From positions 96,001-160,000 of the IMG/VR virus record IMGVR_UViG_3300028591_000070: a DNA stretch of 64,000 bases, one strand, 5' to 3'. How positions within the stretch are numbered: position 1 is the stretch's first letter; each line of letters opens with the position of its first letter. Origin of the DNA: a virus (Duplodnaviria > Caudoviricetes). Below, piece by piece: positions 10,993-61,770 of this stretch. The position numbers and the translations under genes are program-made. The notes beneath the pieces were generated by a model, which saw only the letters and a program-made list of their open reading frames with translations, ran no database searches and had not been told where the DNA came from.

Positions 10993-11832
10993 ATGGACTA
11001 TGATTTTCTCTATCCTCAAGGTGGTGGCGAAAAACAATCAAATAATAAAGCAATAGATAACATTCTCAGATCAGGAGCTGACTTTATTGGAAACCAGTTC
11101 CAGGCTATGTTTTATTGGTTTGATGAAGGTGGCAAAATAGAGAATGTATTTTACCAACATTTTAATACAAACCTCAGTTCAACATTAGTTTATGATAAAT
11201 CTAATTCTCATTTTGATCCAGAAAATCCAAAATTAAATAGTGTAGACGGCGATTTAGACTATGATAATAAATATAAGCAAGCTATTTTATCAAAAGAAGG
11301 ATTTTTAGTTCGCTTTTTAAATATTAAAATGCCTACAATAAAACAAGAAACTTATACTATTAAAGTAGGCATGCAGACAATAGAAAAAGTTAGAACTACA
11401 AAGGCAATAACTCCTCAAGCTTCTTTTTCATTTAGATTAGATGCAAACTTAGAGTGGCTAGACTTTTTTAATAAAGCTTCTGGAAATTATAATACCGTAT
11501 CTCAGAATAGTGATGATTTAAATGATTGGAGAAAAAATATTAGTCAGGTAACAAAATGTTTTGTCCCTTCCAATATAACGTCAAATCATCGATTATGCTT
11601 ATTTGTAAATGCAAGTTGTTTTGATTATACAATTCAAAAATACAAAAATGTAGAAGACTATAAAAATCTTATTCCTTTCTCATATGTTTTTCAAGATGTT
11701 AGATTTTTAGGACCTGGAAATATTACATATGAATCTAATGGTGGTGGAACTCAAGAGATTACTGTAGATTTTATTTATAAACGCTTGAGAAAAATTAGAA
11801 ACTTAGAAGGCGGAGTTATTGAGGTAATATAA
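10993..11832 (+). CDS. tail-tube-fold protein (gp48/gp54-like tube initiator candidate)
   Basis: Shares GAD, P..(Q/E)TY, F(S/T)FR.D, VF.DV.F.G and TQEITVDF motifs with 11832..12881 and 31741..32580. Confidence 0.6.
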   Translation: MDYDFLYPQGGGEKQSNNKAIDNILRSGADFIGNQFQAMFYWFDEGGKIENVFYQHFNTNLSSTLVYDKSNSHFDPENPKLNSVDGDLDYDNKYKQAILSKEGFLVRFLNIKMPTIKQETYTIKVGMQTIEKVRTTKAITPQASFSFRLDANLEWLDFFNKASGNYNTVSQNSDDLNDWRKNISQVTKCFVPSNITSNHRLCLFVNASCFDYTIQKYKNVEDYKNLIPFSYVFQDVRFLGPGNITYESNGGGTQEITVDFIYKRLRKIRNLEGGVIEVI

Positions 11833-16000: not shown

Positions 16001-19000
16001 CTTCTTTGATAGACTTCAATCTGTATTTAATTATACTCACCAAAAAAATAGTAATGTTGCCCAAATGTATATTGCATTTAATGACCTTGACATGAATGAA
16101 TACTCTTACAGAGTAGGTGACTTTTTTAAATTTCTTAACAATAATAAATATAGTTTATCTCCACAGGACGTTTATGAAGGAAAAACAATTTCTGCAGATA
16201 AAATTGTTTTTAGAAAAAATGTTTTAGGATATGATGCTTTATGCAAAGATAAAAATGGCTATGGCTATGAAGGACTAGTAACAGAACCTGAACCTACTAA
16301 AGATGTATATCAGATTAGTACAGATTCATATAATCCAGAAGAAACTTATTATGAAAATGTAGGTAGTAGAATTTTTGTTGTAAAAAGCTTAAAGGAGGAG
16401 GATTATTCACCTAATAAATATTATATTAAAAGAACTATTGACAATAAATATCAGGGTTATCCATTTAGATGGCCTATTTATAAAGATAGTGCTTTTAATG
16501 AATTAGACGTAGAGTATAATTTCTTTTCTAAGAATACTTATGGATTAGATGACAGTATTGCTATCTATGATGATAACAGAAATAAAACAATAAGTTCATT
16601 TAGTTCACAGTCATTGGAAGGTATTACCTTTGATACCATTTCAAAACTGTCTTTCTTATATTCTTGTTTTGATAATAACCATACTTTTGAATCTCAAATG
16701 ACATGGCTTTTACCATTCTTTGTAGATGATGGTACCGACTTTAAATATGAGCTTAAAAGATTATCTCAAGCTAAATCAATTAAAGCAGAGGATAATAAAA
16801 TATATTCTGCATTTGTTACAAGAGACAATAAGATTATTGAGTTGGGTAGCTTAATTTATAATGCTTATCGATTCATGTTCTTTGAATCTAATGCCTTTAA
16901 TGATACTGATGCATCTTCCATAAATTATGAAAATAAATTTTTAGATTGGAGACAAAGAATTTTAGGTGAAGTAGCTCATAAAAATGGTGTCAAAACATCT
17001 AAATCTATTGACTTTATTTTTGACTTAGGAGATAATAAAACTTATAAATTCTCAATTCTAGATAATATTGAAACTTATAAAAAGTTTATTTTCTTGGTGA
17101 CTCAAGGAAAATTAGCTCGTATAAAGAAAATATTGGAAAATGATCCATATAATGCATATAAAACATATGGCGATTTCTTTAAAAAAGATTATCTTATTAG
17201 TATTGATATTTCCACAAATGAAGGAATAGAAGAGGCTAAGAACTCAATTGCAAATTATCTTTATTCTGGTATCTCAGATGATAAATTAAACTTATTATCT
17301 AAATTTTCTGTCACTCCAGCAACTACAGGCCCAAATGATGAATATAATCAATTAGGATCATATAGTACTATTGTTTCAGAAATAAAGTCCCTTAGATTAG
17401 TTGAAGATGTTACTTTAAGTGAGTTACAAGAGTTTTTTACATTTATAGAATCATTTAATAATCCTTCTTCAGATAGTAGATGGGATAGTTTTGAAATTAT
17501 TGACTATGCTAGAGTAGCAGCATATGGTTCAAAAAATATAGTATATTACAATGAATCAGCATATAAGACATTCAATAATATTCCATCAGAAACAAATTTA
17601 AAATTTAATTTTACTCAAATTTTAAATAAAGCAATTAAAGATAGTAATGACCTTATTGATACTCAAGACACAGCCTCTCTTAAGGTAGTTTGGCCTTCTG
17701 AGATAAATACTTATGGTCAAAAACAAGAAAGTCTTACATTTGCTAAAAATAATATTAATCAATTCATTGATAGAAAAGTATCAGATGATACAACTACTAA
17801 TGGAAATATAGGTATTATAAATATTAAGACAAATCCTGTATCAAGAATTTCAATTATTGACGAAAATAATATTCCAGATATAACTGTTGCAGAATTAAAG
17901 CTATTATTAGAAGGTGATGAAACAATTTGCAATAAATGTGGAATTGATAATAATGAAATTAAAGAATATAATCTTAATATTGAGCCACTGAAAAATGCAA
18001 CATTAGACTGGACAATTCCGGTAGTTACATTGGGTGATGATCAATTTAAGACTTTATTTGAAATCAGAAACTTGCAATATCAGCAAATAAGTGCTTATAA
18101 TAATTCTAATGTAGATGAAGAAATCTTGTCAACAGCTGTAATAGATTATTCTAAAGAAGCCATTATCTATGATTTAATTAAGCAAGGATTAAATTATGAT
18201 ACAGCAAAATTATTTGCTGATGGTATTTTAACTGAAGGCGTAAATATTAGTGGTGGCTTTATCCATAATCCTCAACTCCAGACTACATATGGTCTTTTAA
18301 ATACAGATTTATATGGTGAAGTAAAAGAAGATGGTCATATACAATATGGCTCAAAACTTGAAGGATATATATTACATATATCTTCTAAAGAAGATAAAAA
18401 TATTAATGACTTTAAGTTGAAAGATTTATACAATTATAATAATATTGATCAGTTAATTTTAGCTGCAGAAAAATCAAATTGCGATGTATTATTGCAGAAT
18501 CTTTCAACTATTAAAAATTATATTGAATTATTCTTTAGTCATTGTGATAAGATCTTAAAAGATCTTTCAGTTTCAGGTAAGCAATCTCCTATTGAGATTA
18601 AAGGTACTACTTATATTGATGATTTTGTTGATAGTGAAATTACTAATAAAAACTTTAATGAATTAAAGAAGTCATTAGACTCTATTACAACTATTAAAAA
18701 AGAGATACCTACTGATAGTAATATTACAGGTGTTGATGCATATTCACCAATAGTAAATAGTTATTTTGCAGAATTGGCTAATGACTGCGTAGAAATATTT
18801 AGAAAAATTGCTCATATTTTACAAAATAACTTGAATTTAAGTGAATCTGATGCAAAATTAGTGGCTGATATCGCAAATGCTAGGGTATCACTAGACTTGC
18901 CTACTAATCAGCTTAGAGAATCAATTATAAAAACCGCTATAGAAGTTATTAATAAATCTAATTTTACTTTGGATATGCAAAAACCATCTGATATGGAAGA

Positions 19001-20117
19001 TGTTAAAGTTTCAAAAGCATTTAATTTAGAGAAATATAATAATGAGTATGATAGAGAAAATAATACAGGACTTCAAGTAGAATATTATAAATATAACGAA
19101 CTTTTACCAGAATATAGTTATCTCTATTCAAAGCCATCTGATGGAATTTCTATTAAAAAAGTGGTAGATGCTCAAGAGATTAATGGAAAAATGTATCACA
19201 ATAATATAAATACTATTGTAAAACATAGACCTCTAAATGGTGAGGCAATGCAAAAAGAAACATTTATTGGAGATAAAATTGAACTTAAAGAAGGTATGTA
19301 TCTAAGAGGAGAACAACTTCCATTACCAAGAGTTTCATTAAATATTAGTCCTTACATTCAAAATAATACTCAAAGAATTGAGTTTAAGCCTACATATGAA
19401 GATTATGCAAGTACTTATCGTAATCCAACAGTCCATTATGGAAACAGTTCTCAGAAATGTATTAAACTTATTGGTTCATTCCCAAATATTAAAATCGATG
19501 GTTTTGAATACCATATTCTTGCAATAAGAAAAAATATTTTCACTGGAGATGTTTTTGATAAATTGCCTAATGGACTAAAGATTATACCAGATGTAGAAAT
19601 TAAATACGCTGCAAACTATAAGCAAGAATATACTTCAGAGAGTGGTGAGCCAACTTCCCATAGTGCTACCACAACAGGAGAGTTCTTTATCGAGGGTCCA
19701 AGATTATATAAAAACTATGTTTATAGTATAGCATTATCTAATGTTGGTGAAAATAATACTGTTGCAATTTCTAATAAAAATTCTGTATATGCAGGTATTA
19801 CTGTAAATACTTCATGTTTGGTTGAAAACTATCCAAATGATAATAAATATATAGAGCATTTGAATATAATAAAGAGTACTACAGCTGAAAGAGCTTTACC
19901 TTATGACTTAGACTTATTAAGAGATATTATCTTAAATTCAGATCTTTTTATTTATAAGCCTACTACTAAAGAGGAATATTTAATAGATGCTAAAGATAAT
20001 GTTGTATTACAAGTTGGCAATTATGATATATCTATGCCTTCCAGAACTGAGGTAGTAAATATGTTCAAAGGAAAGATCAAACACGTTTCTGAATGTGATA
20101 TAGAATTTGTGCAATAA
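13029..20117 (+). CDS. giant virion structural protein (tail fibre/baseplate-associated candidate), 2362 aa
   Basis: Late motif at 13017; N-terminal beta-rich ASKEIKFGQPVS...IGIAIE...VGSTVYIT segment typical of phage fibre/cement domains; structural gene context. Confidence 0.55.
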   Translation: MNSNFDIPVEKLNEPGNLWIRPQNKQLRYSTDADKAASWLNPLPVYKASKEIKFGQPVSLTNYSQEHSISESGARARTIMPTNALENSSFIGIAIEYGEEKKEIHILNQGELVYEISKKDNPKYWLPPYHKNGDDFVFDWTDADVGSTVYITSNGSYTLNVDDVSGGNIMSVGKLVFAPKATETKEKQQKIIIHIQAGGDDRGVKDTAQFTVQMSSIIKPTSIESDYDQLIFVKINKDGLGEIIFNDDAITNDIESSPVGAIMVKSEDGLCDLTPIIGKKITLVRMGLISGNFGFNTNNVGKIGLLNDGRVAFKSAKDYSLKVGLFKSYSGDTQDFLVDCRFPMEGAESGDKIGTIKPVFGPSDDPLLDIGYALVDNEIHRTTFIRNDSVDKSGIDWEDLIKNCYTKDIFEFGRKINGKYVFSRVLEEFNGKSWSLDIYDTDETVAILNPETFFKFRNLYYTINSDNGIKQVACQIKFNQDSINTNEECIWPEEAYKIKLKATSDKEDYVLGGKGPKSTLFCNISRLVAIGNYMDGNGSNIETYDITVKVQSTGQILAPGFYQNKDGKWCGYEWFIYSNNGLTYLYMSTIPSGVDAKDCNGINTIIAGEKLTSSDPEETLIVTVRRRPTLYNAVYLNQYPTNNPWMPYVDGNTGNLITENAIYFGSPSKLLNQNQTGDEDEATSGMEFNEAGRNGKIELITEDSGKVVTLSTQVRGSTNTPTFKDKKQVIKSDGSISNTIEWEYDFANNVTSLNSYFAPILISRNSKKDEIDLVPLSYQLNNDIVTTSDFNEYLHDNSISALEILDTFYFRNIKYTKDAKKSTISTLLGDDTDNSKILFPEVDILANNYSINSESLSAYKDFLYVDNKYIDYMSFMSLIGLSTKDLFSKVLRLERIVNGVDFNKNVNSQIEYSDNSLDYIDNIGLLRTAGYLKNSLILIDSFNLDHLETNEALFPDNNYISIIDRYIIENFYHYTNSDELKTRYIDYRDKSFFDRLQSVFNYTHQKNSNVAQMYIAFNDLDMNEYSYRVGDFFKFLNNNKYSLSPQDVYEGKTISADKIVFRKNVLGYDALCKDKNGYGYEGLVTEPEPTKDVYQISTDSYNPEETYYENVGSRIFVVKSLKEEDYSPNKYYIKRTIDNKYQGYPFRWPIYKDSAFNELDVEYNFFSKNTYGLDDSIAIYDDNRNKTISSFSSQSLEGITFDTISKLSFLYSCFDNNHTFESQMTWLLPFFVDDGTDFKYELKRLSQAKSIKAEDNKIYSAFVTRDNKIIELGSLIYNAYRFMFFESNAFNDTDASSINYENKFLDWRQRILGEVAHKNGVKTSKSIDFIFDLGDNKTYKFSILDNIETYKKFIFLVTQGKLARIKKILENDPYNAYKTYGDFFKKDYLISIDISTNEGIEEAKNSIANYLYSGISDDKLNLLSKFSVTPATTGPNDEYNQLGSYSTIVSEIKSLRLVEDVTLSELQEFFTFIESFNNPSSDSRWDSFEIIDYARVAAYGSKNIVYYNESAYKTFNNIPSETNLKFNFTQILNKAIKDSNDLIDTQDTASLKVVWPSEINTYGQKQESLTFAKNNINQFIDRKVSDDTTTNGNIGIINIKTNPVSRISIIDENNIPDITVAELKLLLEGDETICNKCGIDNNEIKEYNLNIEPLKNATLDWTIPVVTLGDDQFKTLFEIRNLQYQQISAYNNSNVDEEILSTAVIDYSKEAIIYDLIKQGLNYDTAKLFADGILTEGVNISGGFIHNPQLQTTYGLLNTDLYGEVKEDGHIQYGSKLEGYILHISSKEDKNINDFKLKDLYNYNNIDQLILAAEKSNCDVLLQNLSTIKNYIELFFSHCDKILKDLSVSGKQSPIEIKGTTYIDDFVDSEITNKNFNELKKSLDSITTIKKEIPTDSNITGVDAYSPIVNSYFAELANDCVEIFRKIAHILQNNLNLSESDAKLVADIANARVSLDLPTNQLRESIIKTAIEVINKSNFTLDMQKPSDMEDVKVSKAFNLEKYNNEYDRENNTGLQVEYYKYNELLPEYSYLYSKPSDGISIKKVVDAQEINGKMYHNNINTIVKHRPLNGEAMQKETFIGDKIELKEGMYLRGEQLPLPRVSLNISPYIQNNTQRIEFKPTYEDYASTYRNPTVHYGNSSQKCIKLIGSFPNIKIDGFEYHILAIRKNIFTGDVFDKLPNGLKIIPDVEIKYAANYKQEYTSESGEPTSHSATTTGEFFIEGPRLYKNYVYSIALSNVGENNTVAISNKNSVYAGITVNTSCLVENYPNDNKYIEHLNIIKSTTAERALPYDLDLLRDIILNSDLFIYKPTTKEEYLIDAKDNVVLQVGNYDISMPSRTEVVNMFKGKIKHVSECDIEFVQ

Positions 20118-43037: not shown

Positions 43038-46000
43038 ATGAAAAAGTTTCAACCTAATAGTGATCTATACAACAATTTTTACGATGGCTACACTTCTTCA
43101 GATGAATTTATAGCCAAAAAAAGAATCCATACAACTAATGAAATTCCTCCTCTTTCAATTTATAAGAATCTCCATTCTATGCTTCAGAGAGATTTCTGGA
43201 AGAACTTAGTTGGCGACACAGAAATTATTTATGATGAGTATTATAATTTAGACACAGATGGAAAAGAAACTTTTGATAGAAATGGTGACATAAAGGAAAT
43301 GTCAGTTGCCAAATATACAAATGGCATTCGTTCCTTAAACTATGGCCCAATCCCTAGATTAGTTTGGAATAAAAACTGGAAAAAAGATTATGAGAATTAT
43401 TTACAACAAGTAGAAGATGGTGAAGCATTTGATGAAGGTAAAACAGCAAATGACTTTAAATATATTGTAGATAATTCTGAAACAAAATATAATCGTTTTG
43501 AAGTAACTGGTGTTTTTGAGCCTCAGAAAGATCTTATGATGCATGAGGCTTATCGCTATTTAAGTTGTATTTATCCAGACCATCCAGATTATTTGAACAT
43601 TCTTACAAAGAATGAATTTGATGATAAAATTGATGACTCAGCTTGTTTAATTGATTATAAGATTGATATTCCTTTTATGGATTGGCTTCCAAAATATTTT
43701 GAATATATTGAAGGAATAAATACACAAATTGCTCAAGAAGATGAAGCTGCAAAATTAAAGATTCGTAACCTTAAAAATTATGCAATGAATAGAAAATTCT
43801 TTGGTGCTAAAGAAGGTTATAAAATGTTTGCGGCATCTGCTTTCCAACATGCATCAATTTACTCAGCTTCTCAATATATTCCATTAGAGGGTGGAAATGT
43901 TTCAAGTTTTGGCACTCCAAAGAATGTTGATATTACTTGGTTTAAGGAGTTTTTTGACCAGCCTGAAGAATTTACAAATAGTGACATAGATAAAGGACAC
44001 TACTTATATAAGAAACTTTTCAGAAATATAGATTGGCAGAACTCTTCTTATGATTTCATAAACAGATATAAAGAGCCAACTCCTTTTTATGGAACAGCAT
44101 ATCCAACTCCAAATTCTCGTTTTGTTTTATATGAATATCCAAATGAAAGAATTATCGATACTTTGGATAAACAGGAAGGAAGATCAACTGATGATCTCTA
44201 TGGAACAATAAGAGCTGATTTCAAAGAAGGTCAGAAAATTAAGGTAAGTGGTCAAAAACAAAATTGGGAAGAAGGCTCGTATAAAGAAGGACATATCTCA
44301 TATATTACAAGCGAAACTTATTATAAAGTTAGAGCTATATTAGGATATAACAAGAGTGGTGATTACATGCCTTCTAAATCTGAATTAGAAGAGCATCATA
44401 TTGATAATGCTATTACAGTTGTAAATGTTGATACTCCATTGCAGCCACTTTACAAAAATTTTAGTGTATATCCTTCAAATGGAAAAATACTTCAGCTTAT
44501 TTCAGACCATGACAATAATCCTGAATTAATAGAACATGATAAGGATTTACCTATTGAAGAAAAATGGGCAATTCATAAGAGTGATGCAGATGTAATGCTT
44601 CCATATTTTCAATCACTTGAAATGGAACAGCCTTTCTATTGTTCAACTATTGTTCTTGAGAATATTTATGGTGATATTAAAGGTGAATTATCAAGATTTA
44701 ATGAGGCTCCTAAAGTAAAAACTGCAAAAATCACATTAGACCCACATCAAGATGGATGCATATTTATTGCCCCACAACAGCAGATTTCTGAATTTGAAGA
44801 GGCCTTAAATATCACATTAAATATAGATAGTTGGTTTGATGAGAATGTAGCAAAACCTGCCTCAAAAATAATTTATGGAACTACAAATCTTTCTGATAAA
44901 GCTTTCTTGAAAGAAGGTGATTATATTGTTTCAGAAGATAAAAAATATATCTCATCTGTTTTAGGATTGTCTAGCGCATTCTTACAATTCAGCTTAACTG
45001 GAAAAGGAACAGACTATGAACTTATAAATAAAAAAGTAGAAGCAATGAATAAAGAAACTACTGCTAGACATGGTGTTGTTTTTGCTTTAAGTGGAAACAA
45101 CCCAGAAGCAGCAGGAAAAAGAGTAATTGTTTTTGGTAAGCCTACTTTTGAAGATGTTACTTCTATGGACAATGATCCAAGAAAATTCTCTTCTAAGGGT
45201 GTTTATTTTGATGTTAAAGCAATTCCTACAACTAAAGACCATGCTCAATTAAGATTTATTTACGGTAGTAGATTTGCTTCTATTGCAGCTCAAAAATATC
45301 AAGATTTAAGACAGTTGTATAAAGATGATTATCTTTCTATTGCTGATGAATATGCTAAAAATCTTTTAGATAATCTTCTTTTGATTGATGAAAGTTTTAA
45401 GGCTTTAGATGAGAGAGTTGAAAAAACTAGAGAGTCTATTAAGAATGAGTCTATTTATTACAATGACTACTCAGCTAAAAAATATGATTATTATATGGAC
45501 ACAACTATTTCTGCTATGCTTCTTCGTAAAGTTTTACAAAAACAAGCAGAAAAAACTTATAAGCCTTATGATGATGAATTAAATGGTAAAATTGATGACC
45601 TTGTAAAAACTTATAGAAATACTTGTAACTATGAACTTACTATGGCTGGTGATACAACTTATGCAAATCTTGAAACAGCTAGAAATATTTATACAGATAG
45701 TTTAGTTGACGCTTGGAATGGTTTCAATAAAGTATTTAATGAGGAATACAATAAGTTTTATAAGGCTATTAGCAATTTAGTAGAAGATGGCACAGATTTA
45801 GAAGCTCCAAAAATTAAAAAGAATCTTGAAAAGAATTATAAGATTGTAAATGAAAAATTAAATATTCTTTATAATGCAATTTTAGATTATACACAAGTTT
45901 ATAATGACTCAAATTGGACAGATATTTCTCAGCCATTAGAAGATCTTCTCGGATGGTTTGATAGATTTAAGGACTCTAGAACTCTTATCAGAGAAGCTTA

Positions 46001-49000
46001 TACTAAACTCTTCAAGGATGGTAAAGATGCAGAACAAATCTATCTTAATAGCTGCATACAGTCTCTTAAAGAGTTTAATGATGTATATTATCCTCAATAT
46101 GTTGAATATACTAAGGCTCTTAATAATTCTGAAAATGATGTTCATGAGGAATTAGAGTCAGTTGAGCATCTTTTCTCAGCAATTTCATATTACTATGATG
46201 AAATTGAAAATACTCTTAATCAAAGAAAAACAGTTACTAAAGATGTAACAGACTCTTTCAAAGATGCATTCTATGACTATACAAACTTTATAATTTCTTC
46301 TTGCGGTAAAGGTTCTTATGACGAAAGAGGAATGGCCGCCTTCAAGAAAGATTATAATAAAAAATTACAAGAATTTATTACACTCGAAATTAAAGCTAAA
46401 GAGGTTGTTAAAAAATATGTAGATGAATACATGACTTGGTTTAGTGAAGAGATTGCAATTTATTTTGATGATGAGCAGTTTTATAGCGATGTTATAGACA
46501 TTAAGAGCTCAGACCCAGAAATTAGAAATCTTTCACTAGATATTCTTGGATGTGATACAGTTTTATTTACTGAAATGCTTCCAAATAAAGCATTCTTATT
46601 AGCTCCTCTTCCTAAAGACCTTTTAATGAGAAAGGAATTAGAAGGAGATTTTAGTTACTCATTACTTACAGACCAAGATTATTTCCAAGATATTGTTTCA
46701 TTCAAGAAAAATGAATTTGATGATTTATTGGAATTAGAAGCAGAAAGTATTTTTGGTAGAAGTGGATTGCTCACAAACTGTAAATCAGTTTCAATGGATG
46801 CTTGGAGTTTTGGTTCAATAAACACAGCAACATTAGCAGAGACTCACTATGATGAGGATATATTTGATTATGTTACTGAAGATGTTGCCTTAAAAACAGA
46901 AGCAGATAAAAACTTCTTAGGTGATTACTATCAGTCTAATAAACCTTGGATAAATGATTATTATATTGATGACCCACAGGCAGCAGAATTAGAAGTTAAA
47001 CAATATAAATATTTTGACTTAAATCAGGATATTTATACTTTAATGAATGATACTGATATGACTCATAAGTTTGCATATTGTGACCCTAATATGCTTGAAA
47101 TGTTCTTAACTGATGAGGATAAGAATAATATTCGTGGTGAGGTATTAAATTTTAATAAAGTAAAAATTAATTGTCATACTGTACAAGATTCAAATGTTGT
47201 TACCTTAGAGGAAAGAGCATCAATTAGAAAATTAGATTATATCACAACAGGATGCCAAGTTATTGGTAAAACTGTAGATGATGATACATATGTAGAAGCA
47301 ATTGACTTAGAAGATCATTCTATAACATTAAATAAGCCAATGCAGATTACAGGTGAATTTGTATTTACATTTTTATGTAAAATTCAATATGAGCCTGATG
47401 ACGTTTCAGAAGACTTCTATAATTATCGTATTGCAGCTTCTAAAAATAAAGAAGTTTCAAATAACTCAATTTTTGAACATGGTGTTATTGATACCTTAAA
47501 TTATGGCGAAATCTCAGATTATATGCTTAGCTCATATATTGATTTTGCTGTATTTAGAGAAGCTCTTACTGATAACTTACAAGAGCAGCCATACTATAAA
47601 GAAAACTTCAATTTGCTTGTAAGAAATTTCTATAATAGATATTTGGGAACAGCTCGTGAGAATGATGTATTTGTTAAGCCATCTATGATTGAGAATGAAG
47701 ATGATATTTTCTTTGAATTAAATGCTTATAACCTTTTAGGTGAAGATTATATCATGAGGCAAGAAATATTAGATTATTTCTATCAGTACTTAGATGAAAT
47801 GACAAAAGCTTCAGATGACATTCATCTAGGTGTTGCTGTAAATGGATATACTCTAAATGATGGAAAAGTTTTCCATGGTGATAGCGCATTCTCAGATAAA
47901 AACATTCATGCTAAGTTTATAACTACTGATGACTGGAAGGATTATGAGCCATTCTATATTAAGATTGGTTGTGGTTGTATTCCAGGTATTTTTGATGAAA
48001 AAGAAATTGTAGACCACGATGAGAATGATGAACTTGTAGGAAGATCACTTTATAATGAACATGATGACCCTTATGGTTCTGCTCTTTATAATGGTTCACA
48101 AGTAGAAGTACAAGATAATACTCAAAGAAAACATTATTATGATATTGGTGACCCTGTATTTAAGGCTCGTTTAGGTGAATATGAAATTCAGAAAAATATC
48201 ATGTTTAATGATTTCTCATCTGATAGAGTATTTAATACTATCCAATTCTCAGTTATGAAAAGAATCATCGACTCATTTGTTGATGATAACACAATTACTA
48301 TTGCGAACTCAACAGTTTCAAACTGGAATGGATTACAAACATGGCCTAAAAACTGTTATACAATAGATGATCTTTATATTATGGGTGAAAATGGGGAAGC
48401 AGCTGAACTTAAAGATATAAACTTCTTAGGTGAATGGTCTCCTAAAATTGAAAATGATGAGATTGTTTTCCCAGAAAAGCCATTATATGACAATGTATTA
48501 AATTATTATGTAATTACAAATAATTATAGCTTCATTGTAGATGAGAAAGAGGTTAATTATAAGCCTGGACAGATTATTATCTGGGAAAATGACAAATGGA
48601 TTGTTAAAACATTCTATGCTGCTGGATTTATTGGTGATTCATATTCTGCAGCAAAATATATCACAGGTAAATATGAAGATGAGGCTATCACAACAGGTTC
48701 AAATCTTATCATTACTGAAACAACAGATTTTAGAGCAGTTATTCTTTATAAGGTTTTAAATTCTATTGGATGCTATACTAATATTGCCACTGCAGCAAAT
48801 TATGGTTACTCTAAATTATTAGAGCTTTATCAAAATGCTTTAGCATTCTTCAAAGAAGAAAAAACAATAGATGAAGTAAATGAATCAGTATATCCTATTG
48901 AATTAGACCCAACCTGTAAAAATACTTTTGATGAGAATACTTGTTATTGGTTTGAATACATTGGATATGATGCCGATTTTGCGGATGCTTTGGCAAATAG

Positions 49001-52000
49001 AAACTTTAAGCCAGGACAGTTTATTGCAGCTATTTATAATATTGACCATTTCGAGATTGTATTATGCGATGTTTCTCAATTACTATTCCATTTTGATAAC
49101 TCAAGAAAATATCTCTCTGAAAGAGAGTATAGAACATTCTTTGGATTAAACTCTAAAGCAAATGGAGCTTCATTAGAAGGTGAAGATTATATTGATAGAT
49201 ATCCATTCTTAATCAATGAAAAAATTGAGTCTATTTCAAATACTATTAAGTTGAGAGATTATGAAGAGCTCGTTCCAGGTTCATATTCTTCTATGAATAG
49301 AGTTTGTATTCCATTCACAGCAGAAGGATTTAGATATTTAGAAGATGGTTCAATCTCAAAAGAAAAAGAAAAGATTTTCCTTACAGAAGACTATATTTTC
49401 TCAGATGATGAAAATAAAGTATTATTTACATATAACATGATTGATGGTAAACCTGTAAAGTTTGCTATTTATCAGGAACAGAACAAATACTTTAAAAATA
49501 TTGTAAATAATGTAGTTGGATATTCAAAAGAAGAGGTTCTTACAAAAGATGGCCTTATTCAGAATGGTATCTTTACACCTGTTTCTGGATTTGACTTCAG
49601 TGGCTCAAGTTTAAGTTTGAATGATAGAATTTTAAGTCTTAAGCCAATTGATATTCGTTCAGCTTATGGACTTTATTTAGAGCCTCGTTTATTCAGTAAA
49701 TATACAACTATTTCTGGTACACTTAAAGGTATTATTGCAGATTCAGATATCGAAGAAAGACTTTATGGAAAAGTTTTGAAATGGAATGTTTCTCATGAAT
49801 TTGGAACTGGTACAAAAGAATATCTTAATAGAGTTTCATTTGCATCAGTTTTGGATAATTTCCGTCCAAATAATAAACAAGATGAAACAGTTTATCAAGA
49901 AAATAGTTTGACATTTGATAAAGATTCATTTGAAGACAAAATTATATCTGCTCCTAAGATTACAAAAGTGAATATCTTGGATAAGATTTCTACAGAAAAT
50001 GGAGTAACTTATTATAAGAATAATCTTATCGTTGAAGGTACAATTGATGAAAAAGACCCAACAGTTATCAACTTTGGTAGTACAAAATCTATTGATGCCT
50101 TAAATAATGTACAGGTTGGTGATAAGATTCTTGAAATTGCTTCTCTTACAAATGGTTCAAATACATTTAATCAGATTGATGCCGACCTTACAGGTATTAG
50201 ATTTATTGATTATAGAAATAATAAACTCTTGATTTGTGCTGACTCAGGTATGAAAGTAAGAGAAATGAGTGAGTTTACACTCGAGAATGTTAAGAGAATT
50301 AATGGTTCTACAAGACAGGACTACATCTTAGATGATGAAGTATTAACTGGTTCTGTAAGTCCTTCAATGCTTATCTGGGATAATGACCAAGAAAATTGGA
50401 TTTTAGCCCTTAAAGAAGCAAATGCTGAAATAGGTCTTGGAATGTATAATATTTCTTTCCAAGATGATAATAGAATCGTTCTTATTAAGATTGATGAAGA
50501 TCTTGAAAAAGATAATGACTTCAATAAGTTCCAATTAGTTGACCCTTACATTACTGAAAATCTTGATAAACTTAATAATTCAAATGATAAATTAATTTCT
50601 CATAAATATAGCGAAGGTAGAATGCTTGCAAGAGATATGGCCATTCGTGAAATTGATACAACAATCAATAAAAAGCCATCTAGAGCAACTGTTACTGTTG
50701 AATATAAAGAAACAAATGGCAAGATTCAGCCTAAATCTCCTATTATAGAATATGATGCATCACCTAGAAATTACATTGAATTAGATTGTACTATAAGCAA
50801 TACAAAAGAAGAAACAACTCTTAAATTAAAGAAAGATAAAGCTTATTGGTTGTTTGACAATAGAATTGGTAAGTGGATTTTCTATCAGACAAATAAGGGT
50901 TCTGAGATTCATATTGGTGACCAAGGAAAAGATTCTCTTAATTTAAGACTTTATTATGTTGGTTACAATACAGCTAAAAATATTGGATTAGACCAGACAT
51001 TTGAAACAGATGCTTGGGGATTTGCTGATGCTACAGAGGTAAATGATAATACTTTAGCTCAAGGTGAGTTCTTATGGAAATTACCTCGCCCAATGTATGA
51101 CAATGAAATTATTGCCGTACAAGTTGAAACACAAGCTTCTTATGAAAAGAGCTCAAATGTTGATGATAAAGATAATAAGTATTCAGAAATTGATGTTTAC
51201 GCCGAGATAGCGGGCGCAACAATTTCAGACGTAGCTATTACAACTAAAGACATTCTCACAATTGGTACAGAAGCTTATGATAATCATGAAGCTTTAAGAA
51301 ATAAAACAGACTTCGATAGATTACCATATGTAACAGGACCTTATATTCCTTATGAGGATAAGTCTAAAGTTATTAGAGGTTGCTCAAACTCAGATGGTTA
51401 TGAAGCTGTTTTGGTAGGTACAAATATCTTTATTAAGTCTCCTACAAAACTTTGGACTTCTGACAATAATAAACATTATACTCCAACTATGGAAACAGAA
51501 GAGTTCTTCTGGAAACGTGCAAAACTTCCAAGATTTAGAGATATTTCTCATGGTGATATTTCTAAAATGACTATTGAAGATGCATTTACAAAAGTTGCAA
51601 TTATGCGTCTTATGGTTTTGGAAGACCTTAAAACAAACTTCCCAGAGTCTGCATTCTATGCTTGGCTTAAAAATAATGAAGTTGTTCATTATGAGAATAT
51701 TGATGATATTCCAACAAAAATCACAATGAATGATGTATCTTATACTATTACTGCTAATGGTACAAGACCTACATATTTCACAACACTTAAAGATGGCGAG
51801 CTTGTTCCAGAAAGTGTAGTATATGGAAAAGCATTGCATTTTGAAAATTATATCGCAGCAGAGGATGTTGACCTTTCATTAGGATATGCTTCAAACTCAT
51901 ACTTAAAAGAGCAGATGTATCTTTCTTATTTGAGAGATTTCTATGAAATTATTTTAGGTTGCAATAATATTACAAATATGTTTGAAGAAGGAATAAAAGA

Positions 52001-55000
52001 TATTAAGATGTCTAATACTTGTCTTATTATTACTTCTTATAACAATATCATCATGAGTTTGCCATTCTCTAAAATGACAAGTAGAGATGATATTGAAAAC
52101 ATGAATAACTGGAATATGCTTAGTCTTAATACTGACTACGAAATTCCATGTTGTGATAATCATTCATATCAGAATGGAAATTATATCTATAAAGATAGTC
52201 AGAATGGTATTGTAACTTATAACTTTGGACCAAAATTATCATCATTCTTTGCTTATGACCTTACTTGCTCATATGTTAAGGATGATATTCAGGTTTATGG
52301 TGGTACATTAAATCTTGATAATCAGGCTGTTTCAGATTATTTGAGCTTCCTTAAAAAGTTTGATGGTGTAGATTATGACTATTCTTGGATGGATAAATCT
52401 AATGTAAATGCATTTAAGAATAAACATTTATTCATTGCTTATTCAAGTGATAATGGTCGTACATTCACTACAGTTGACCTTACAGAAGCTGGTATTCAGA
52501 TTCCAACAATGGGTTCAAATGTAAATGCAATTTATAGAATAGATAATACTATTAGAATTCTTTATAACAAGAGTTCTGATAAGATTTATAATTATGATAT
52601 TATAATTAAGGATGACTCTCTTGAAGAAAGTTTGATTGAAAAAGAATATACTGAATCTGACATTAAGTATAAGCTAATGAATAAAAATTTCTATATTGGT
52701 GGTGGCTATGAATGTTTAATCAACTCACCAGTAGAAAAGAATAGCTTTAATTCAAGTGTAGATAGTTTTATTATCTCAATGCCAGGTGCTTTCTCAGGTG
52801 GTACTATTTCTATAAAATCTGCTACTTCTATCACTTATAATCCAACAAATGTATATGATACAGATGGTGGAAACTTAAATGTTAGAGTTCTTTTAGCTAT
52901 TCAGACTTCTAAACAGATTTATGATCAGTTCAAATACCTCGACTATAAAGAAGATTACTTCAATATGCAAGGTGATTTAAGAGTAAGCGAATCTGAAGAG
53001 GTATTGAATTCATCAACTGCTGATAGAGCATTCTCATTAAATGAAACTTTACCACTTGCTCAAGAGTCAATTTATAGTATTCCTTCATTAGCTGTTGATA
53101 CTGGAGATAAAGGTACTCATAACATTTATAAATATAATGTTTCTCTTAAGAATGGCTCAAATGAAAAGGTTTATAACCCAATTCCTATGACAAACTTTGA
53201 AGGTAATGACATTTATCTTTGTGGTATGGTTTCTCAAGAAGAAGGAAAGAAATTCTTAATTTATAGAAACAGAACTATTGGAAGTTGCATGACATTTAAG
53301 GATATTCTTAAATCATATAATAGTTCACCAGATATTATTGACAATATCCAGAGAATGTATGATATAAATGATGACTTTGAGTTTACTGTAAATGATGAGT
53401 TCTTAACAAATATTATCAATAAATATGCAATTGATAAAAATCTCATCTTAAAAGAAATTCATTTTGAGAATGAAAATCCTCATATGATAAATACTACAAG
53501 TGAAAATACAGATGAAGATATTATCCAGATTTTGAATAATAAATACTTCTTAAAGTGGCCTACAATCGATGGTGCTTTATGCGAAAAGCTCTGTGGTGAT
53601 TTAGGACTTGAATTTGATGAGTATGATGGTTCTAATACTGATGATGGCCTTAAAGAGTTTTTAGAGAAGTTGCAGCTTCTTGAGAAAGATTTAGGCAACC
53701 TAACAGATGAAATTATTAGATCATACTTTAAACCAATTAAGGTTTACTATAATGAAGATGACTACTTCTATGGCGTTTATGAGATTAGTTCATCTACAAT
53801 TTTAATGACAGAAAGATCAATCAAAGAAGTTATTTCAATGACTTATGAGTTTGGTTCTACTTTCAATTATTTGGATAATTCAATTCTTACAAGTACTACA
53901 GATTTGGATGAAAATAATTTGAGTATGTATACTGCTGTATTAAATACTCAATATGATGAAAACTCTTTAATAAACGCAATTGCTATTGATCCGGTTGGTT
54001 ATGGAGCTTCAATAAGCAATAAGAAATGGGATAATAAGCTTCCTCAAGATATTGACCCAGCTGCTTGGGTTGAAAATACAATGTTGTTCAACTCAAATGG
54101 AGAGCCAATCTTCTTATGCGACACAAATGGAAATAATGTCACAATGAGAAAAGGTTTATTCTATGGTGAAAAAGGAAATGTTTATACAGTTTCTCATGAT
54201 AATCTTTATGCTGAAGATTCAGTTATTGACATTTTTGATGGCAACTTGGTTGATAATAAATCAACATTCCATTTCTATAGTTTACCTGAGTCTGAAATAA
54301 AGATTTGGACACCTTTTGAAAAAGTTGACCTTAAAGATACAGTAATTACTCCATTTAGAGTTTATAGAGGTGGTATTGCAATTTCTAAAGAAGAATTTGA
54401 TGCTCACTACACTTTAACTTATAGTTCTCTTTATAAGAATGACCTTACACCTTATGTTGGTTTAGCTATCACTTATGATGGTGAAAAACTTGCATTTAAG
54501 GGAAGTTATAATGGTGATGCTCTTGTTGAAAATGATGTTCTTAATATAACTATAACAGATAATAGATCTGGAGCTTCAGCTTCTATAACTCTTGAAGTAG
54601 AAAATAACAGCTTCAAAGTTGTAAATGTTCCAAATACATATGAGGCTTATACAGAAGATGATTCACAACAAATAACTTATGTTATCAATAGAGAACTTTC
54701 TAAGATTTCTATTCCAGATAATAATATCAGTGGAGCAATTTCTAGAGAAAATGGAAAAACAAATTTAGCAATTACAATTGCTAGATGGCCTGAAAAACCT
54801 TCAATTATCATTTATGATAATGATGGTAATTCAGCAAATCTTAAATTGGATGTTGTTAAATTAAATCCAAAGCTTTATACAGATAGAGATTGGATTAGTG
54901 ACAATTTAGATGTAGATGGAATAAATTGTAAAGTATACTCAGAAGATGTAGATATTACAGATAGATATGTTATCACAAAAACTAATAAACAAATTAAAGC

Positions 55001-58255: not shown

Positions 58256-59032
58256 TTAAATTGAAAAATATTTAAATCCGATTACAGCATCTTTGCCACA
58301 TTCGTCTTCAAGAACTTTCTTTACAGATCTTTTATCATCTTTTACGAAAGGCTGCTCTAAGAAACAAACTTCAGCTAGATGCTTATTAAGTTTACCAGTA
58401 AGAATACCTTCTTTTACCTTATCAGGTTTTCCGGCCATCTTAGGATCTTTATCCATCTGAGCCTTGAAAATTTCCATCTTTTCATCAAGGTAGTCCTGAG
58501 GTACACTTTCTTTGTTGATAAAAGGTGGCTCAAAAGCTACAAGATGCAAACAGCAGTCATGAGCAAATGTTTTTGCCTTCTCTCTGTCTTTAACATTAGA
58601 AAGAATTACTACAGCACCAGACTTATTATCAGAATGTACATATGTACCAACTACATCTTCAGGACCATAGTCAAATGATTTTTCTGTGTCGATAATAATA
58701 TTTTCGCGCATAGAAACTTTAAGTTTATCTACAGCTTCTGTGAGATTTTCAGCTTCACCTAATGCTGCAAAGTCTTTGTTATTTGCAACAAAGTCTGTCT
58801 CACATTTTATAACAGCAACATTTACAGCATCTTTACCATTATCTTTGATAAAGACTCGACCTTCAGCAGTAGCTCTACCACTTCTAGCATCAGAAGCAGC
58901 AAGTCCTTTCTTCTGAAGAACTTTTATTGCTTCATCAAAATCACCATTAGCTTCATCTAATGCCTTCTTACAATCTGCAAGACCTGCCATAGTAGCAGCT
59001 CTTAATTTTTTAACCAATTCAACATTTGCCAT
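58256..59032 (-). CDS. tsf: translation elongation factor Ts
   Basis: VKKLRAATMAGLADCKKAL UBA-like N-terminus, RATAEG, CETDFVA signature, YVH, GKPDKVKEGILTGKL, LEQPFVKDD. Confidence 0.95.
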   Translation of the reverse strand: MANVELVKKLRAATMAGLADCKKALDEANGDFDEAIKVLQKKGLAASDARSGRATAEGRVFIKDNGKDAVNVAVIKCETDFVANNKDFAALGEAENLTEAVDKLKVSMRENIIIDTEKSFDYGPEDVVGTYVHSDNKSGAVVILSNVKDREKAKTFAHDCCLHLVAFEPPFINKESVPQDYLDEKMEIFKAQMDKDPKMAGKPDKVKEGILTGKLNKHLAEVCFLEQPFVKDDKRSVKKVLEDECGKDAVIGFKYFSI

Positions 59033-60265
59033 TTATTTTTCCTCATCTGATGCTTTAAAGTTATAAATAGGTTTTATAATAGATATAACATCAGCATTTT
59101 CTTTAATATTATCCAAAATCTCATCAGCAGATTTATAAGCCATTGGAGATTCATCAATTGTAGAAGTACTTACACAAGTAGTATAAATATCCTTCATTGC
59201 CGCCTTAAAATCTTCCATCTTCAAGCATTCTTTTGCTTTAGAACGAGACATTAAACGACCAGCTCCATGTGGGCCAGAGAAGTTCCAGTCTGGGTTTCCC
59301 TTACCTTTTACAATCAAAGAACCATATTCCATGTTGATTGGAATAATAGCTTCTTCACCTTCCTGAAGAGAAATTGCGCCTTTACGCAAAATGCCATTTT
59401 CAAGGTCGATATAATTGTGGATAGTACAAAACTTACCAAGAATATGTCTTTTTTTAATTCCCATTTCTTCAATGAGAACATCAAGCATTGCTTCACGATT
59501 TAAGCGAGCAAACTCCTGGCAGATTTTCATATCATGCAAATATCCATCCAAATCTTCGCCTTCAAGATATGACAACTCTCTAGAAATTATAACTGGTGGA
59601 AGCTTAGCAATTTCTTCCTGAATGTCTTTTTCACGACCTTCTTTTTTAAGTCTGTTAATAAGTTCATTCTTAGCAGAAGAATTATTTTTATGATAAGCGA
59701 TTGCTTTATTTTCCCAGTATTTAGCAACTACAATTCCAAGGTGACGAGAACCAGAGTGGATTACAATATAATAATCACCATTCTCATCTTTATCGATTTC
59801 AACAAAGTGGTTTCCACCACCTAATGAACCCATAGCATAAAGTTCTTTATCATAGTCGGCATCCGCAATAAGCTGTTTAATGTCAATATTTTTTGTAAAC
59901 TTATGGTAAGTTGAACGATGGCCCGCTCCTGATGGAACTTTAGTATGCATGATCTTATCAAACTTATCCAAACCTGGCTTATTAAATAACTGCTTTCCAG
60001 CTTCTGCAGAAATTTTCAAAACAAGCATTCCACAGCCAATATCAACTCCAACCATATTTGGATTGACGCGAGGATTCTCTTTATTGATCTTCTGGGTAAA
60101 TCCAATTGTGACACCTTTTCCACTGTGTACATCTGGCATAATAGCCACATGGCATCCCTCTGTAACAGGATTATTTGCAAAAGTATATAATTGAGATAAT
60201 GCCTCATCCTCAACTGTTGAGGCATATACATTCATTTCGCAAAACTTACCTTTAATAGTAAACAT
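59033..60265 (-). CDS. rtcB: RNA 3'-phosphate/5'-OH ligase RtcB
   Basis: MPDVHSGKG, VGVDIGCG, GSLGGGNHF, IHSGSR, HNY, RKGA, HGAGR, DESPMAYK. Confidence 0.95.
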   Translation of the reverse strand: MFTIKGKFCEMNVYASTVEDEALSQLYTFANNPVTEGCHVAIMPDVHSGKGVTIGFTQKINKENPRVNPNMVGVDIGCGMLVLKISAEAGKQLFNKPGLDKFDKIMHTKVPSGAGHRSTYHKFTKNIDIKQLIADADYDKELYAMGSLGGGNHFVEIDKDENGDYYIVIHSGSRHLGIVVAKYWENKAIAYHKNNSSAKNELINRLKKEGREKDIQEEIAKLPPVIISRELSYLEGEDLDGYLHDMKICQEFARLNREAMLDVLIEEMGIKKRHILGKFCTIHNYIDLENGILRKGAISLQEGEEAIIPINMEYGSLIVKGKGNPDWNFSGPHGAGRLMSRSKAKECLKMEDFKAAMKDIYTTCVSTSTIDESPMAYKSADEILDNIKENADVISIIKPIYNFKASDEEK

Positions 60266-60268
60266 AAC

Positions 60269-61135
60269 CTACCTCTCTAACCATCGCTTACATAAAAAAC
60301 CTGGGACAAAACCTTCTGGGCATTCATAGCAAAACTTATTTTCTTTGCCATTATTAAACCAGTGTTTTCCTTTGCCTGCTTCAGAAATTTTCTTTTTTCG
60401 TTTTTCCTCAGTTTCTTTATTTATTTTTTTAGTAATTCCTTTCCAATAACCTTCTGGGCAACATTCAGATACTATATTATCTTTTCCATTTGTCCAGAAA
60501 GTTTTTCCAAACATTCCATTATCTTTTCCAAATTTTTGTGAAGATGGACAAGACTGACCTTTATTCCAAACTTTAATTTCACCAGACTCATATTTTGTTT
60601 TTAAAGTTGTTGAAATTTTTTCTTTCGTGGATTCATTTAATGAATGACCTTCATTATGAGTTTTAATCTCTTTTGAAGCATATTTTCTTTTAAGAGTATT
60701 AGAAATTTTATCCTTGTGATCTTTAGAAGGACTTTTATGTAAAGTTCCATTTTTTATTTTAGTTTCTTTAGCTTTGCTTCTTGACTCAGGAGTCCAATTA
60801 TTTATGCCTTTTCTAAGATTAGAATGCATAATTTTTAATTGCTCATATTCTCTACTAGAGATTTTATAATCTGAATTAGGTCGAACAGTAAAAGCTACTA
60901 AAGCATATGACATTTCTTTTGATGGATATATTTTACTTAAAAGTTGATGACAGAAAAAATGCTCTCTTGCTGTCAAAAGAACTATATTTGTTCTTCTCTT
61001 TTTCCATAAAGGAAATAATGACTTTGGTAAAATATGATGCCTTTCATAATATCCATTCTTTTTAGATCTTAAACCTTGTGTTTCCTCCAATCTCGCATTA
61101 GAAATAATTTTAATATAAACTTTTCTATAATTCAT
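60269..61135 (-). mobile_element. free-standing HNH homing endonuclease with NUMOD-type repeats
   Basis: ERHHILPKS...NIVLLTAREHFFCHQLL; HKDKISNTLK, NGMFGK, WTNG, WFNNG repeats. Confidence 0.9.
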
Positions 61136-61138
61136 ATT

Positions 61139-61297
61139 TTAATTAGTTAAACTAGTATGTGTATCTGGCATAATTGCAATATTACAACCTTCTACAACAG
61201 GAGAGTTCATAAATCCGTAAATTTGAGACATACATTCATCTTCAACTGTAGTAGCATAAACTTTTGCAGTTCCATATTTTCTTGTTATTTCAAACAT
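61139..61297 (-). pseudogene. rtcB: displaced rtcB 5' fragment (52 aa)
   Basis: MFEITRKYGTAKVYATTVEDECMSQIYGFMNSPVVEGCNIAIMPDTH aligns with the first 47 aa of 59033..60265; SD AAGGAG. Confidence 0.9.
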
Positions 61298-61301
61298 AAT
61301 T

Positions 61302-61502
61302 TTACTCCTTCTTATGTATTTCGAAATACATAATTGTATGACCAGGGTCAAACTCATTGTCAACTTTAACAAGAGCCAAAGTCTTACCTTTTTCAGGTAT
61401 ATTTTCAGCTGCAAGTTTTGTTAATTTTTCTTCTGAAACTTCGACATATATTCTGTCATTTTCATCTCCGATAGGATTATCACAAACAAAATAATGCAAC
61501 AT
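61302..61502 (-). CDS. hypothetical protein
   Basis: SD AAGGAG. Confidence 0.7.
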   Translation of the reverse strand: MLHYFVCDNPIGDENDRIYVEVSEEKLTKLAAENIPEKGKTLALVKVDNEFDPGHTIMYFEIHKKE

Positions 61503-61503
61503 A

Positions 61504-61770
61504 TTATTCTCCTTTGTCCTCTATACCTATAGAGAAAAATGTTGTTAGGATAAATCCAATTATATAAAAAAGATATGCAATAATTACAGCCGGCCAAAGA
61601 AAAAAGCAAAAACATAAATGTTCATGCCAAGAAGATGCTTCTATTTTAGGATTTTTTGCTTTTGCTCTTTTATCAATCCATTTTTGGATGGGCCATGAGA
61701 TACGAGCAAAAACTCCACCAATAAAAGCATATCCAAACATTATAGCAAATATAATAACAATTGCTAACAT
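61504..61770 (-). CDS. membrane protein
   Basis: Two TM segments. Confidence 0.7.
   Translation of the reverse strand: MLAIVIIFAIMFGYAFIGGVFARISWPIQKWIDKRAKAKNPKIEASSWHEHLCFCFFLWPAVIIAYLFYIIGFILTTFFSIGIEDKGE

Follow-up and report, generated by a model that had tools for sequence, protein, structure and literature searches.

Analysis of a 64,000-nucleotide stretch of a giant (jumbo) double-stranded DNA phage genome (hereafter the window; bases 96001–160000 of one 385,934-bp viral contig, IMGVR_UViG_3300028591_000070, 31.7% G+C) reveals a complete rtcB gene preceded by a second, incomplete copy of its own 5' end, with a gene for a predicted HNH-type homing endonuclease between the two. We consider it very probable that this arrangement represents a composite, splicing-free homing cassette located inside the resident rtcB after codon 48. 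The element would consist of an 18-nucleotide (nt) leader, a free-standing HNH-type endonuclease gene and a divergent replacement of the first ~55 rtcB codons, the latter bringing its own ribosome-binding site and start codon. The resident 5' part would have been pushed upstream as a redundant 52-codon fragment, and the replacement 5' end fused in frame to the resident body, giving a full-length chimeric RtcB without intron or intein splicing. The observations that carry this proposal are the architecture of the locus, a fixed left junction, an empty site, the chimerism of rtcB, an identical cassette in diverged backgrounds and a near-isogenic pair of genomes with and without the element.

Organization of the rtcB locus

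All features of the locus lie on the minus strand and are listed below; types A and B of the rtcB 5' end are defined in the next section, L numbers refer to contigs of relatives and P numbers to protein sequences, and ORF stands for open reading frame.

61302..61502, minus strand: up66, a conserved small gene directly 5' of rtcB, flanking the site on the left in most relatives
61297..61139, minus strand: rtcB 5' fragment, A-type, displaced native end, 52-codon ORF (phrog_1075, tRNA splicing ligase, E = 5.6e-8)
61136..61153, minus strand: element leader, 18 nt, AGTTTAACTAATTAAAAT, which gives the fragment its out-of-context tail and stop codon and carries ACTAATTA
61135..60269, minus strand: free-standing HNH-type homing endonuclease gene, 288 residues, predicted from PHROG profiles and a conserved motif
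60265..59033, minus strand: complete chimeric rtcB, 410 residues (Pfam RtcB PF01139, E = 1.8e-59)
60000..60265, minus strand: replacement (B-type) rtcB 5' end and co-conversion tract, B-like to about rtcB nt 250–270
60096..61165, minus strand: recently transferred cassette, 1,070 nt, 100% identical to L126
59032..58256, minus strand: tsf (EF-Ts), starting directly after the rtcB stop codon (Pfam EF_TS, E = 2.1e-38)

The fragment ORF has its own AAGGAG ribosome-binding site, continues for 47 RtcB codons up to MPDTH and terminates with TSLTN and a TAA stop codon. The spacers between the fragment and the endonuclease gene, and between the latter and the complete rtcB, amount to 3 nt each, the ribosome-binding site of the complete gene (GAGAGG) being located within the last codons of the endonuclease gene. 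The complete RtcB is a full-length match to its family (phrog_1075, E = 9.7e-124, residues 2–409), and its MPDVH motif aligns to M63–H67 of the Pyrococcus horikoshii RtcB structure; a literature search for the role of the Asp and His residues of MPDxH was without result, and no catalytic role is claimed here. Comparison of the fragment with the first 47 codons of the complete gene shows two homologous but divergent sequences, 28/47 residues and 88/141 nt being identical. A preliminary description of this locus had proposed the order fragment, HNH gene and complete rtcB, a fragment with its own Shine-Dalgarno sequence and an MPDTH-TSLTN end, and a complete gene whose first 47 residues are a divergent version of the fragment; the coordinates all hold, and so does the divergence. 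Its statement that there is no room for a group I intron is likewise borne out by the 3-nt gaps and by a search with Rfam, which found no group I intron at E up to 1 within 58900–61600.

The locus is not specific to a single assembly. The identical endonuclease protein is present on at least 18 contigs, by which an assembly chimera was rejected, and in L124, L125 and L127, originating from separate samples, the entire arrangement is repeated at 98% identity. The left flank is recognizable more widely: homologs of up66 with 78–88% amino acid identity adjoin rtcB or an rtcB fragment in L113, L116, L118, L122 and L126.

Chimeric structure of rtcB

A protein search retrieved 120 close RtcB relatives (72–88% identity), many of them encoded on contigs of 300–400 kb. 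Together with the window's own gene these 121 sequences were typed according to their first 47 residues. Type A starts, matching the window fragment at 38–46 of the 47 positions (42–46 for most), account for 91/121; type B starts, matching the start of the window's complete gene at 39–46 of 47, for 12/121; and type C starts for 13/121, with few other types besides. The fragment upstream of the endonuclease gene is of type A, and the complete gene begins with a type B start.

The remainder of the complete gene tells a different story. For residues 48–410 of the window RtcB the best match is P0003 (91.5%), whose start is of type A, as compared with ~86% for the B-type proteins. In sliding-window comparisons the window rtcB is 85–97% identical to the B alleles of L113, L115 and L106 from nt 1 to ~270 (88–97% as far as ~nt 250), whereas its identity to the A allele of L110 is 61–68% over nt 1–150 and rises to ~90% by nt 270; beyond ~nt 270 the ranking flips, and the A allele is nearer to the window gene than the B alleles. 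Expressed by segment, the identity over nt 1–150 is 90–92% with B alleles vs. 65% with the A allele; from nt 180 to the end it is 80–83% and 90.8% (L110), respectively. A maximum-likelihood tree built from residues 95 to the end of the 121 proteins places the window protein with the A-type proteins P0003 and P0011, with 97–99 support in the Shimodaira-Hasegawa-like approximate likelihood ratio test (SH-aLRT). On this tree of RtcB bodies the B N-terminus requires 11 label changes, at least 8 of which are forced by well-supported branches, and the type C start requires 10, at least 7 of them forced. The chimeric RtcB anticipated in the preliminary description is thus recovered, B-like from nt 1 to ~250 and A-lineage-like afterwards, and the separate histories that it had suggested for the N-terminus and the remainder of the protein are seen as discordance between the B label and the body tree.

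When B-type proteins are compared with those A-type proteins whose bodies are nearest, the differences are almost confined to residues 3–53. Over the first 100 residues of six such pairs, 3/6 differ only at residues 3–53, and the other three show one to three extra differences at residue 54 or at 92–97; for P0002 and P0030, all 20 differences fall at residue 53 or before. The corresponding block of type C ends near residue 73. B-type 5' ends differ from one another chiefly by synonymous codon changes (for instance 14 synonymous vs. 3 nonsynonymous); hence purifying selection acts on the replacement end as a coding sequence. Retention of RtcB function by the replacement end is indicated by these sequence comparisons.

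Empty site and fixed left junction

The empty site of the window's lineage is found in L122 (protein P0011), which contains up127, up88, up66 and an intact A-type rtcB without an endonuclease gene 5' of rtcB. Its nucleotide identity to the window is 95% from 63000 to 61154, that is to rtcB nt 144, the end of codon 48, and the homology stops exactly at the start of the leader, which defines the insertion point as …MPDTHA|GKG…. That relatives devoid of the endonuclease gene should join the fragment to the rtcB body, a check proposed in the preliminary description, is what the intact A-type rtcB of L122 shows, being colinear with the window up to nt 144. The window fragment itself matches A-type RtcB N-termini at 42–46 of 47 residues. 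In L113 and L115 a relic of 20–40 nt encoding …IMPDTHA is followed by the identical leader and by endonucleases 90% and 84% identical, respectively, to that of the window, and fragment ORFs with the …H-TSLTN end occur on other contigs (P0121, P0122); the left junction is thus constant.

The two copies of the rtcB start also differ in their affinities. The fragment is 95% identical to the intact gene of L122; the replacement end is 62–65% identical to A alleles and 90–100% to the B ends of other genomes. A local tandem duplication diverging in place was rejected on both counts, the fragment resembling intact alleles of relatives and the replacement end those of other genomes.

Transfer of the cassette between genomes

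The extent of the mobile unit can be read from two comparisons. L126 encodes the identical endonuclease protein, has a different gene 3' of rtcB, and its flanks are 65–88% identical to the window. Between these diverged flanks the two sequences are 100% identical from 61165 to 60096, the endonuclease gene being without mismatch. At the left edge there is a single mismatch at 61166 and the next at 61187, and identity falls sharply on both sides of the block. The shared 1,070 nt begin with the final 12 nt of the fragment, run through the leader, the whole endonuclease gene and the 3-nt spacer, and take in rtcB nt 1–170. The window and L126 each keep their own diverged A-type fragment.

The second comparison concerns L139 and L140, from two runs with neighbouring accession numbers and with common downstream genes. 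In L139 the endonuclease gene abuts a B-type rtcB, the contig beginning inside the endonuclease gene; in L140 up66 abuts an intact A-type rtcB and the element is absent. Over 6,000 bases from the rtcB ATG the two differ at 73 positions, 62 within nt 7–171 and 11 within nt 204–381, with zero differences in the remaining ~5.6 kb past nt 381. Such a pattern is characteristic of gene conversion that took place recently around the insertion point, the co-converted tract being short and the two genomes otherwise identical. Together with L122, the pair provides a presence/absence polymorphism at one fixed site, and co-conversion declining with distance is found both in this pair and in the window, whose B-like tract reaches ~nt 250. 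The view taken in the preliminary description, that the mobile unit is the HNH gene plus a new rtcB N-terminus, agrees with the block shared with L126 and with the L139/L140 pair.

The endonuclease

The 288-residue protein matches phrog_655 ("homing endonuclease", E = 8.4e-38) and phrog_12434 ("HNH endonuclease", E = 2.3e-14). Residues E31, H33, H34, N50, E58, H59, C62 and H63 are invariant among 46 homologs. In the AlphaFold model (mean predicted local distance difference test score, pLDDT, of 82; >90 for residues 1–70) the invariant residues fall on a predicted strand-strand-helix unit (31–34, 51–54, 56–69; pLDDT >90), followed by helical repeats and small β-hairpin modules. Relatives of the endonuclease give sub-threshold or precomputed NUMOD3 matches. 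A sequence search of the Protein Data Bank gave no match, and Foldseek against the same database returned nothing at E up to 0.001. The designation as HNH-type homing endonuclease is therefore well supported by family profiles and motif, the fold does not prove it, and the activity is a predicted one. The ORF is intact across phage backgrounds at 77–100% identity. None of the endonuclease relatives on the viral contigs L081–L105 adjoins rtcB, and this set is uninformative for the rtcB site.

The gene is headed by the motif ACTAATTA, located at 61147..61140, 12 nt before the endonuclease ATG. The genome contains 48 copies of this motif, of which 34 lie within 60 nt 5' of ORFs of at least 100 codons vs. 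~1.3 expected (an enrichment of ~30-fold 5' of ORFs), and 24 are placed at exactly -12 from the ATG. A wider pattern, ACTAATT(A/T)N2-6ATG with 4 nt as the typical spacing, heads 54 ORFs, several of them exceeding 2,000 codons, as well as the endonuclease gene. Examples of motif-headed ORFs in the window are:

779-1216, minus strand
10993-11832, plus strand
13029-20117, plus strand
43038-52040, plus strand
60269-61135, minus strand (the endonuclease gene)

The constant distance from the motif to the ATG suggests that it is either a promoter producing near-leaderless transcripts or a specialized signal for initiation. A late motif had been noted at this junction before; ACTAATTA is indeed a real, strongly enriched start-proximal signal carried by the element, and PHROG annotation of ten motif-headed ORFs yielded nothing informative, hence no pointer to "late" timing. 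Outside the window, at G000:C1:167528-168106, a ACTAATTA-headed ORF of 192 codons resembles the C-terminal module of the endonuclease (37% over 44 residues, E = 7e-5) and may be another endonuclease-related gene.

Distant relatives, a second element family and stages of decay

This endonuclease lineage is associated with the rtcB 5' region a second time, independently: in L006, a distant jumbo phage of ~348 kb whose RtcB is 51% identical, a homolog of the endonuclease (45% identity) occupies the spacer just 5' of rtcB, and its siblings L013 and L009 have the spacer without an endonuclease gene.

L006:5154-5990: endonuclease gene, rtcB unduplicated; empty counterpart L013:5958-6001

Comparison of the L006 rtcB with those of the endonuclease-free siblings reveals 16–18 substitutions in nt 120–180 vs. 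0–5 in adjacent 60-nt bins, clustered on both sides of the MPDVH codons. Such a cluster fits a recognition or cut site at this position, with protective changes in the element-bearing allele.

The same 20-nt zone of rtcB also hosts another HNH element, inverted and equipped with a replacement end of its own. In L118 and L119 the A-type fragment is cut earlier, after 43 codons, with the junction near nt 126 (not nt 144), and is followed by a G+C-rich hairpin, an inverted HNH relative of 232 residues and a replacement end designated B'. L116 has the same inverted element end and a type C replacement start, the fragment being gone.

L118:3984-5001, opposite strand: second element family, HNH relative of 215–232 residues
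L119:1468-2485, opposite strand: second element family, HNH relative of 215–232 residues
L116:4140-5001, opposite strand: second element family, HNH relative of 215–232 residues

Other relatives represent later states. L106–L109 retain the B start and a 5-codon relic of the A-type start and have lost the endonuclease gene. In the decayed locus of L120 the endonuclease gene lies between N-terminal and C-terminal scraps of rtcB. Fragments decay or vanish in L113, L115, L116 and L106. In L128 a deletion between two EDEC-coding stretches took out the endonuclease gene and rtcB along with the greater part of the fragment and of tsf, which shows rtcB and tsf to be dispensable at least in some setting; what remains at L128:1553-1660 is a 35-codon ORF made of the first 22 A-type rtcB codons and the last 13 tsf codons, joined at the EDEC-coding stretch. 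Public metagenomes hold the element in stages that include the empty site, fresh insertion, decayed relics, loss of the endonuclease with the foreign end kept, and collapse of the locus.

Proposed mechanism and alternatives

We propose that the endonuclease would cut or nick the intact A-type rtcB of co-infecting relatives near the MPDTH codons. During repair, the fragment and the upstream flank would provide the left homology arm and the rtcB body the right one, and the leader, the endonuclease gene and the new 5' end would be copied into the break. The fragment is probably, then, the left homology arm for homing. Because the replacement end is only ~62–64% identical to the fragment, the restored gene is probably a bad substrate for cutting, and recombination by which the endonuclease gene would be bypassed or deleted is probably impeded. 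A cut at the MPDxH codons and cleavage resistance of the new end are predictions that draw on the constant junction after codon 48 and on substitution clusters around the MPDxH codons in two lineages. As to its origin, the element may descend from an intergenic endonuclease gene 5' of rtcB, as in L006, through a one-off illegitimate join that left the 5' fragment of the recipient upstream; from then on, regular homing into A-type genes would have relied on the fragment for homology on the left.

Several points weigh against this proposal. The nuclease activity, the cut site and the immunity of the B allele are predictions. Pfam HNH remains below threshold on the endonuclease, both with default settings and at E up to 10, where no significant family appears, and the top structural match in VIA-align is weak (HNH nuclease of phage GVE2, Z 4.7, root-mean-square deviation 5.8 Å over 58 residues) and tied with unrelated rows. 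The nearest empty-site relatives, L122 and L110, are not isogenic with the window (85.6% and 90.8% identity in the body), and neither represents its parental allele. The L139 contig ends inside the endonuclease gene and so does not reach the left junction or the fragment. Ordinary recombination between two genomes already carrying the element could, in principle, also account for the block that the window has in common with L126.

An unlikely alternative, although the one that survives best, considers the endonuclease gene as an ordinary intergenic one, the fragment as a one-off scar without a role, and the mobile unit as the endonuclease gene with normal co-conversion. It draws on L006, where the homolog in the spacer 5' of an unduplicated rtcB is probably the ancestral state, and on the decay or disappearance of fragments in the four relatives mentioned above, so that selection in the carrier does not preserve the fragments. 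However, in an A-type target the 5' end of the gene lies upstream of the cut, so that the only left homology of the donor is the fragment with its flank. Moreover, the right edge of the cassette recurs at residue 53 in several body backgrounds, the left edge stays within 12–33 nt of the junction, and recipients keep their own diverged fragment, as the window and L126 do, which is expected only if each insertion takes place inside rtcB.

Still less credible, and in our opinion very improbable, is the absence of any homing, general homologous recombination among co-infecting jumbo phages having carried the endonuclease gene along as a passive or inactive passenger. The boundaries of exchange match the insertion point on both sides in independent pairs; L139 and L140, identical for ~5.6 kb past nt 381, nevertheless differ by the element and by dense changes at nt 7–171 that thin out by nt 381; the endonuclease ORF has stayed intact across backgrounds; and a second, inverted HNH element with a replacement end has settled in the same 20-nt zone. 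These features stand against the two arguments in its favour, namely the mosaic make-up of the entire region, in which tsf, up88/up66 and further nuclease-like ORFs are variously present or absent, and the merely predicted status of the endonuclease activity.

Finally, the fragment as half of a split or spliced gene (degenerate group I intron, intein, split-intein trans-splicing or translational bypass) can be dismissed as wholly improbable: endonuclease genes at conserved codons do usually sit in introns or inteins, and split genes made by insertion are known in T4-related phages (PMC2988022), but here Rfam finds no intron, the gaps measure 3 nt, a TAA stop codon closes the fragment, separate ATGs open the endonuclease gene and rtcB, the downstream gene is complete and already holds codons 1–47, and the fragment is deleted in relatives with a full rtcB, so that group I intron, intein and split gene were all rejected on the Rfam result and the anatomy.

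Comparison with known systems

Endonuclease genes landing in coding sequence are generally thought to survive via introns, inteins or tolerated gene splitting. The rtcB locus would add a fourth survival route in phage, the replacement of a gene end, which to our knowledge has until now been documented only for the 3' ends of fungal mitochondrial genes. A literature search for gene-end replacement in phage found none, only intergenic, intron, intein and split-gene cases, which is not proof of absence. A nucleotide search of a phage collection gave only distant rtcB matches (65–72%) and no close relative.

The closest known counterparts are mobile endonuclease ORFs of fungal mitochondria that bring a replacement C-terminus, first described in Allomyces macrogynus atp6 and found also in atp6, atp9, cox2 and nad3 of Glomus sp., atp9 of Rhizopus and cox2 of Mortierella (PMC3630166). 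As in these, an endonuclease ORF lies within a conserved gene without intron or intein, a foreign, divergent duplicate of the gene end restores a hybrid gene, and the displaced native end persists as a duplicate, unexpressed or in decay, that is close to element-free relatives; the native piece in Glomus atp6 likewise matches endonuclease-free relatives (PMC3630166). Even the divergence of the duplicates is similar, 63.5% nucleotide identity in Glomus atp6 (PMC3630166) vs. 62–64% at the rtcB locus. On the other hand, the fungal elements leave the native C-terminus downstream (PMC3630166), whereas the rtcB element is their mirror image in that the 5' end is replaced, so that the element has to bring a ribosome-binding site and a start codon as well. 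It also has a separate endonuclease ORF instead of an in-frame fusion, is of the HNH type instead of LAGLIDADG or GIY-YIG, and resides in a phage instead of a mitochondrion.

Intronless homing by free-standing phage endonucleases is known from SegF, SegG, SegB and MobE of T4 (PMC2988022, PMC2790892, PMC2330249). The rtcB element shares with these a free-standing gene that brings its own expression signals, polymorphic presence or absence at a fixed site, flanking co-conversion and a target in a conserved gene adjoining the endonuclease gene, and the L006 homolog fits the T4 type exactly. In contrast to the T4 examples, which are intergenic and involve no duplication or replacement of the target, the element of the window is inserted inside coding sequence. 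Genes split by insertion of an endonuclease gene have been reported as well (Aeh1 nrdA/mobE, T4 gene 39/60 mobA and phage 25 gene 43; PMC2988022), and "fractured genes" with split inteins are described by Dassa et al. 2009, as cited in PMC10448857. In these, too, a free-standing endonuclease gene interrupts a phage gene at a functionally critical place, no intron being involved. Their two pieces, however, are complementary and both needed, whereas at the rtcB locus the upstream piece is redundant and the downstream gene complete: the fragment duplicates codons 1–47, and relatives lose it and keep rtcB, unlike what an arrangement of the Aeh1 nrdA type would imply.

We see about even chances that the element belongs to a so far undescribed class of phage homing elements that invade coding sequence with their own gene start (ribosome-binding site, start codon and ~50–75 codons), and that at least three cassettes, B with a forward HNH gene and B' and C with an inverted one, compete at the rtcB hotspot as "immunity alleles". 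Under this proposal the cassettes may also rewire rtcB expression, because the forward B cassette puts rtcB downstream of the ACTAATTA signal. The composite cassette proposed above, independently of whether it stands for a class, explains why RtcB N-termini are discordant with the rest of the protein in this phage clade, and it cautions annotators that short "RtcB-like" ORFs beside nuclease genes are insertion scars. A-type vs. B-type rtcB at nt ~100–190 offers a testable nuclease/target pair.

Neighbourhood of the locus

Between rtcB and the gene for dn157, tsf is present only in the window's lineage (L124, L125, L127). The same slot is empty in L110, contains in L122 an inverted HNH relative of 256 residues, ~77% identical at the nucleotide level over part of its length to the window endonuclease gene, and in L113 a TACO1/YebC-like gene. 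Thus tsf is a lineage-specific neighbour and lies outside the mobile cassette. A search of viral contigs with the tsf protein gave no relatives, so it provides no synteny anchor.

Nuclease-like ORFs or ORFs of unknown function come and go around rtcB (L115:3118-4029, L139:1976-2884, L140:2186-3094, L107:2461-3330). A DUF7487 protein of 302–303 residues is encoded directly 3' of rtcB in some relatives, and a DUF559 (Vsr-like) protein of 289 residues 5' of rtcB in L107 and L108, being absent in L106. Precomputed Pfam matches to flagellar FliM/FliMN_C and FlgM at L120:2603-3571 and L118:3427-3540 point to an unusual phage cargo.

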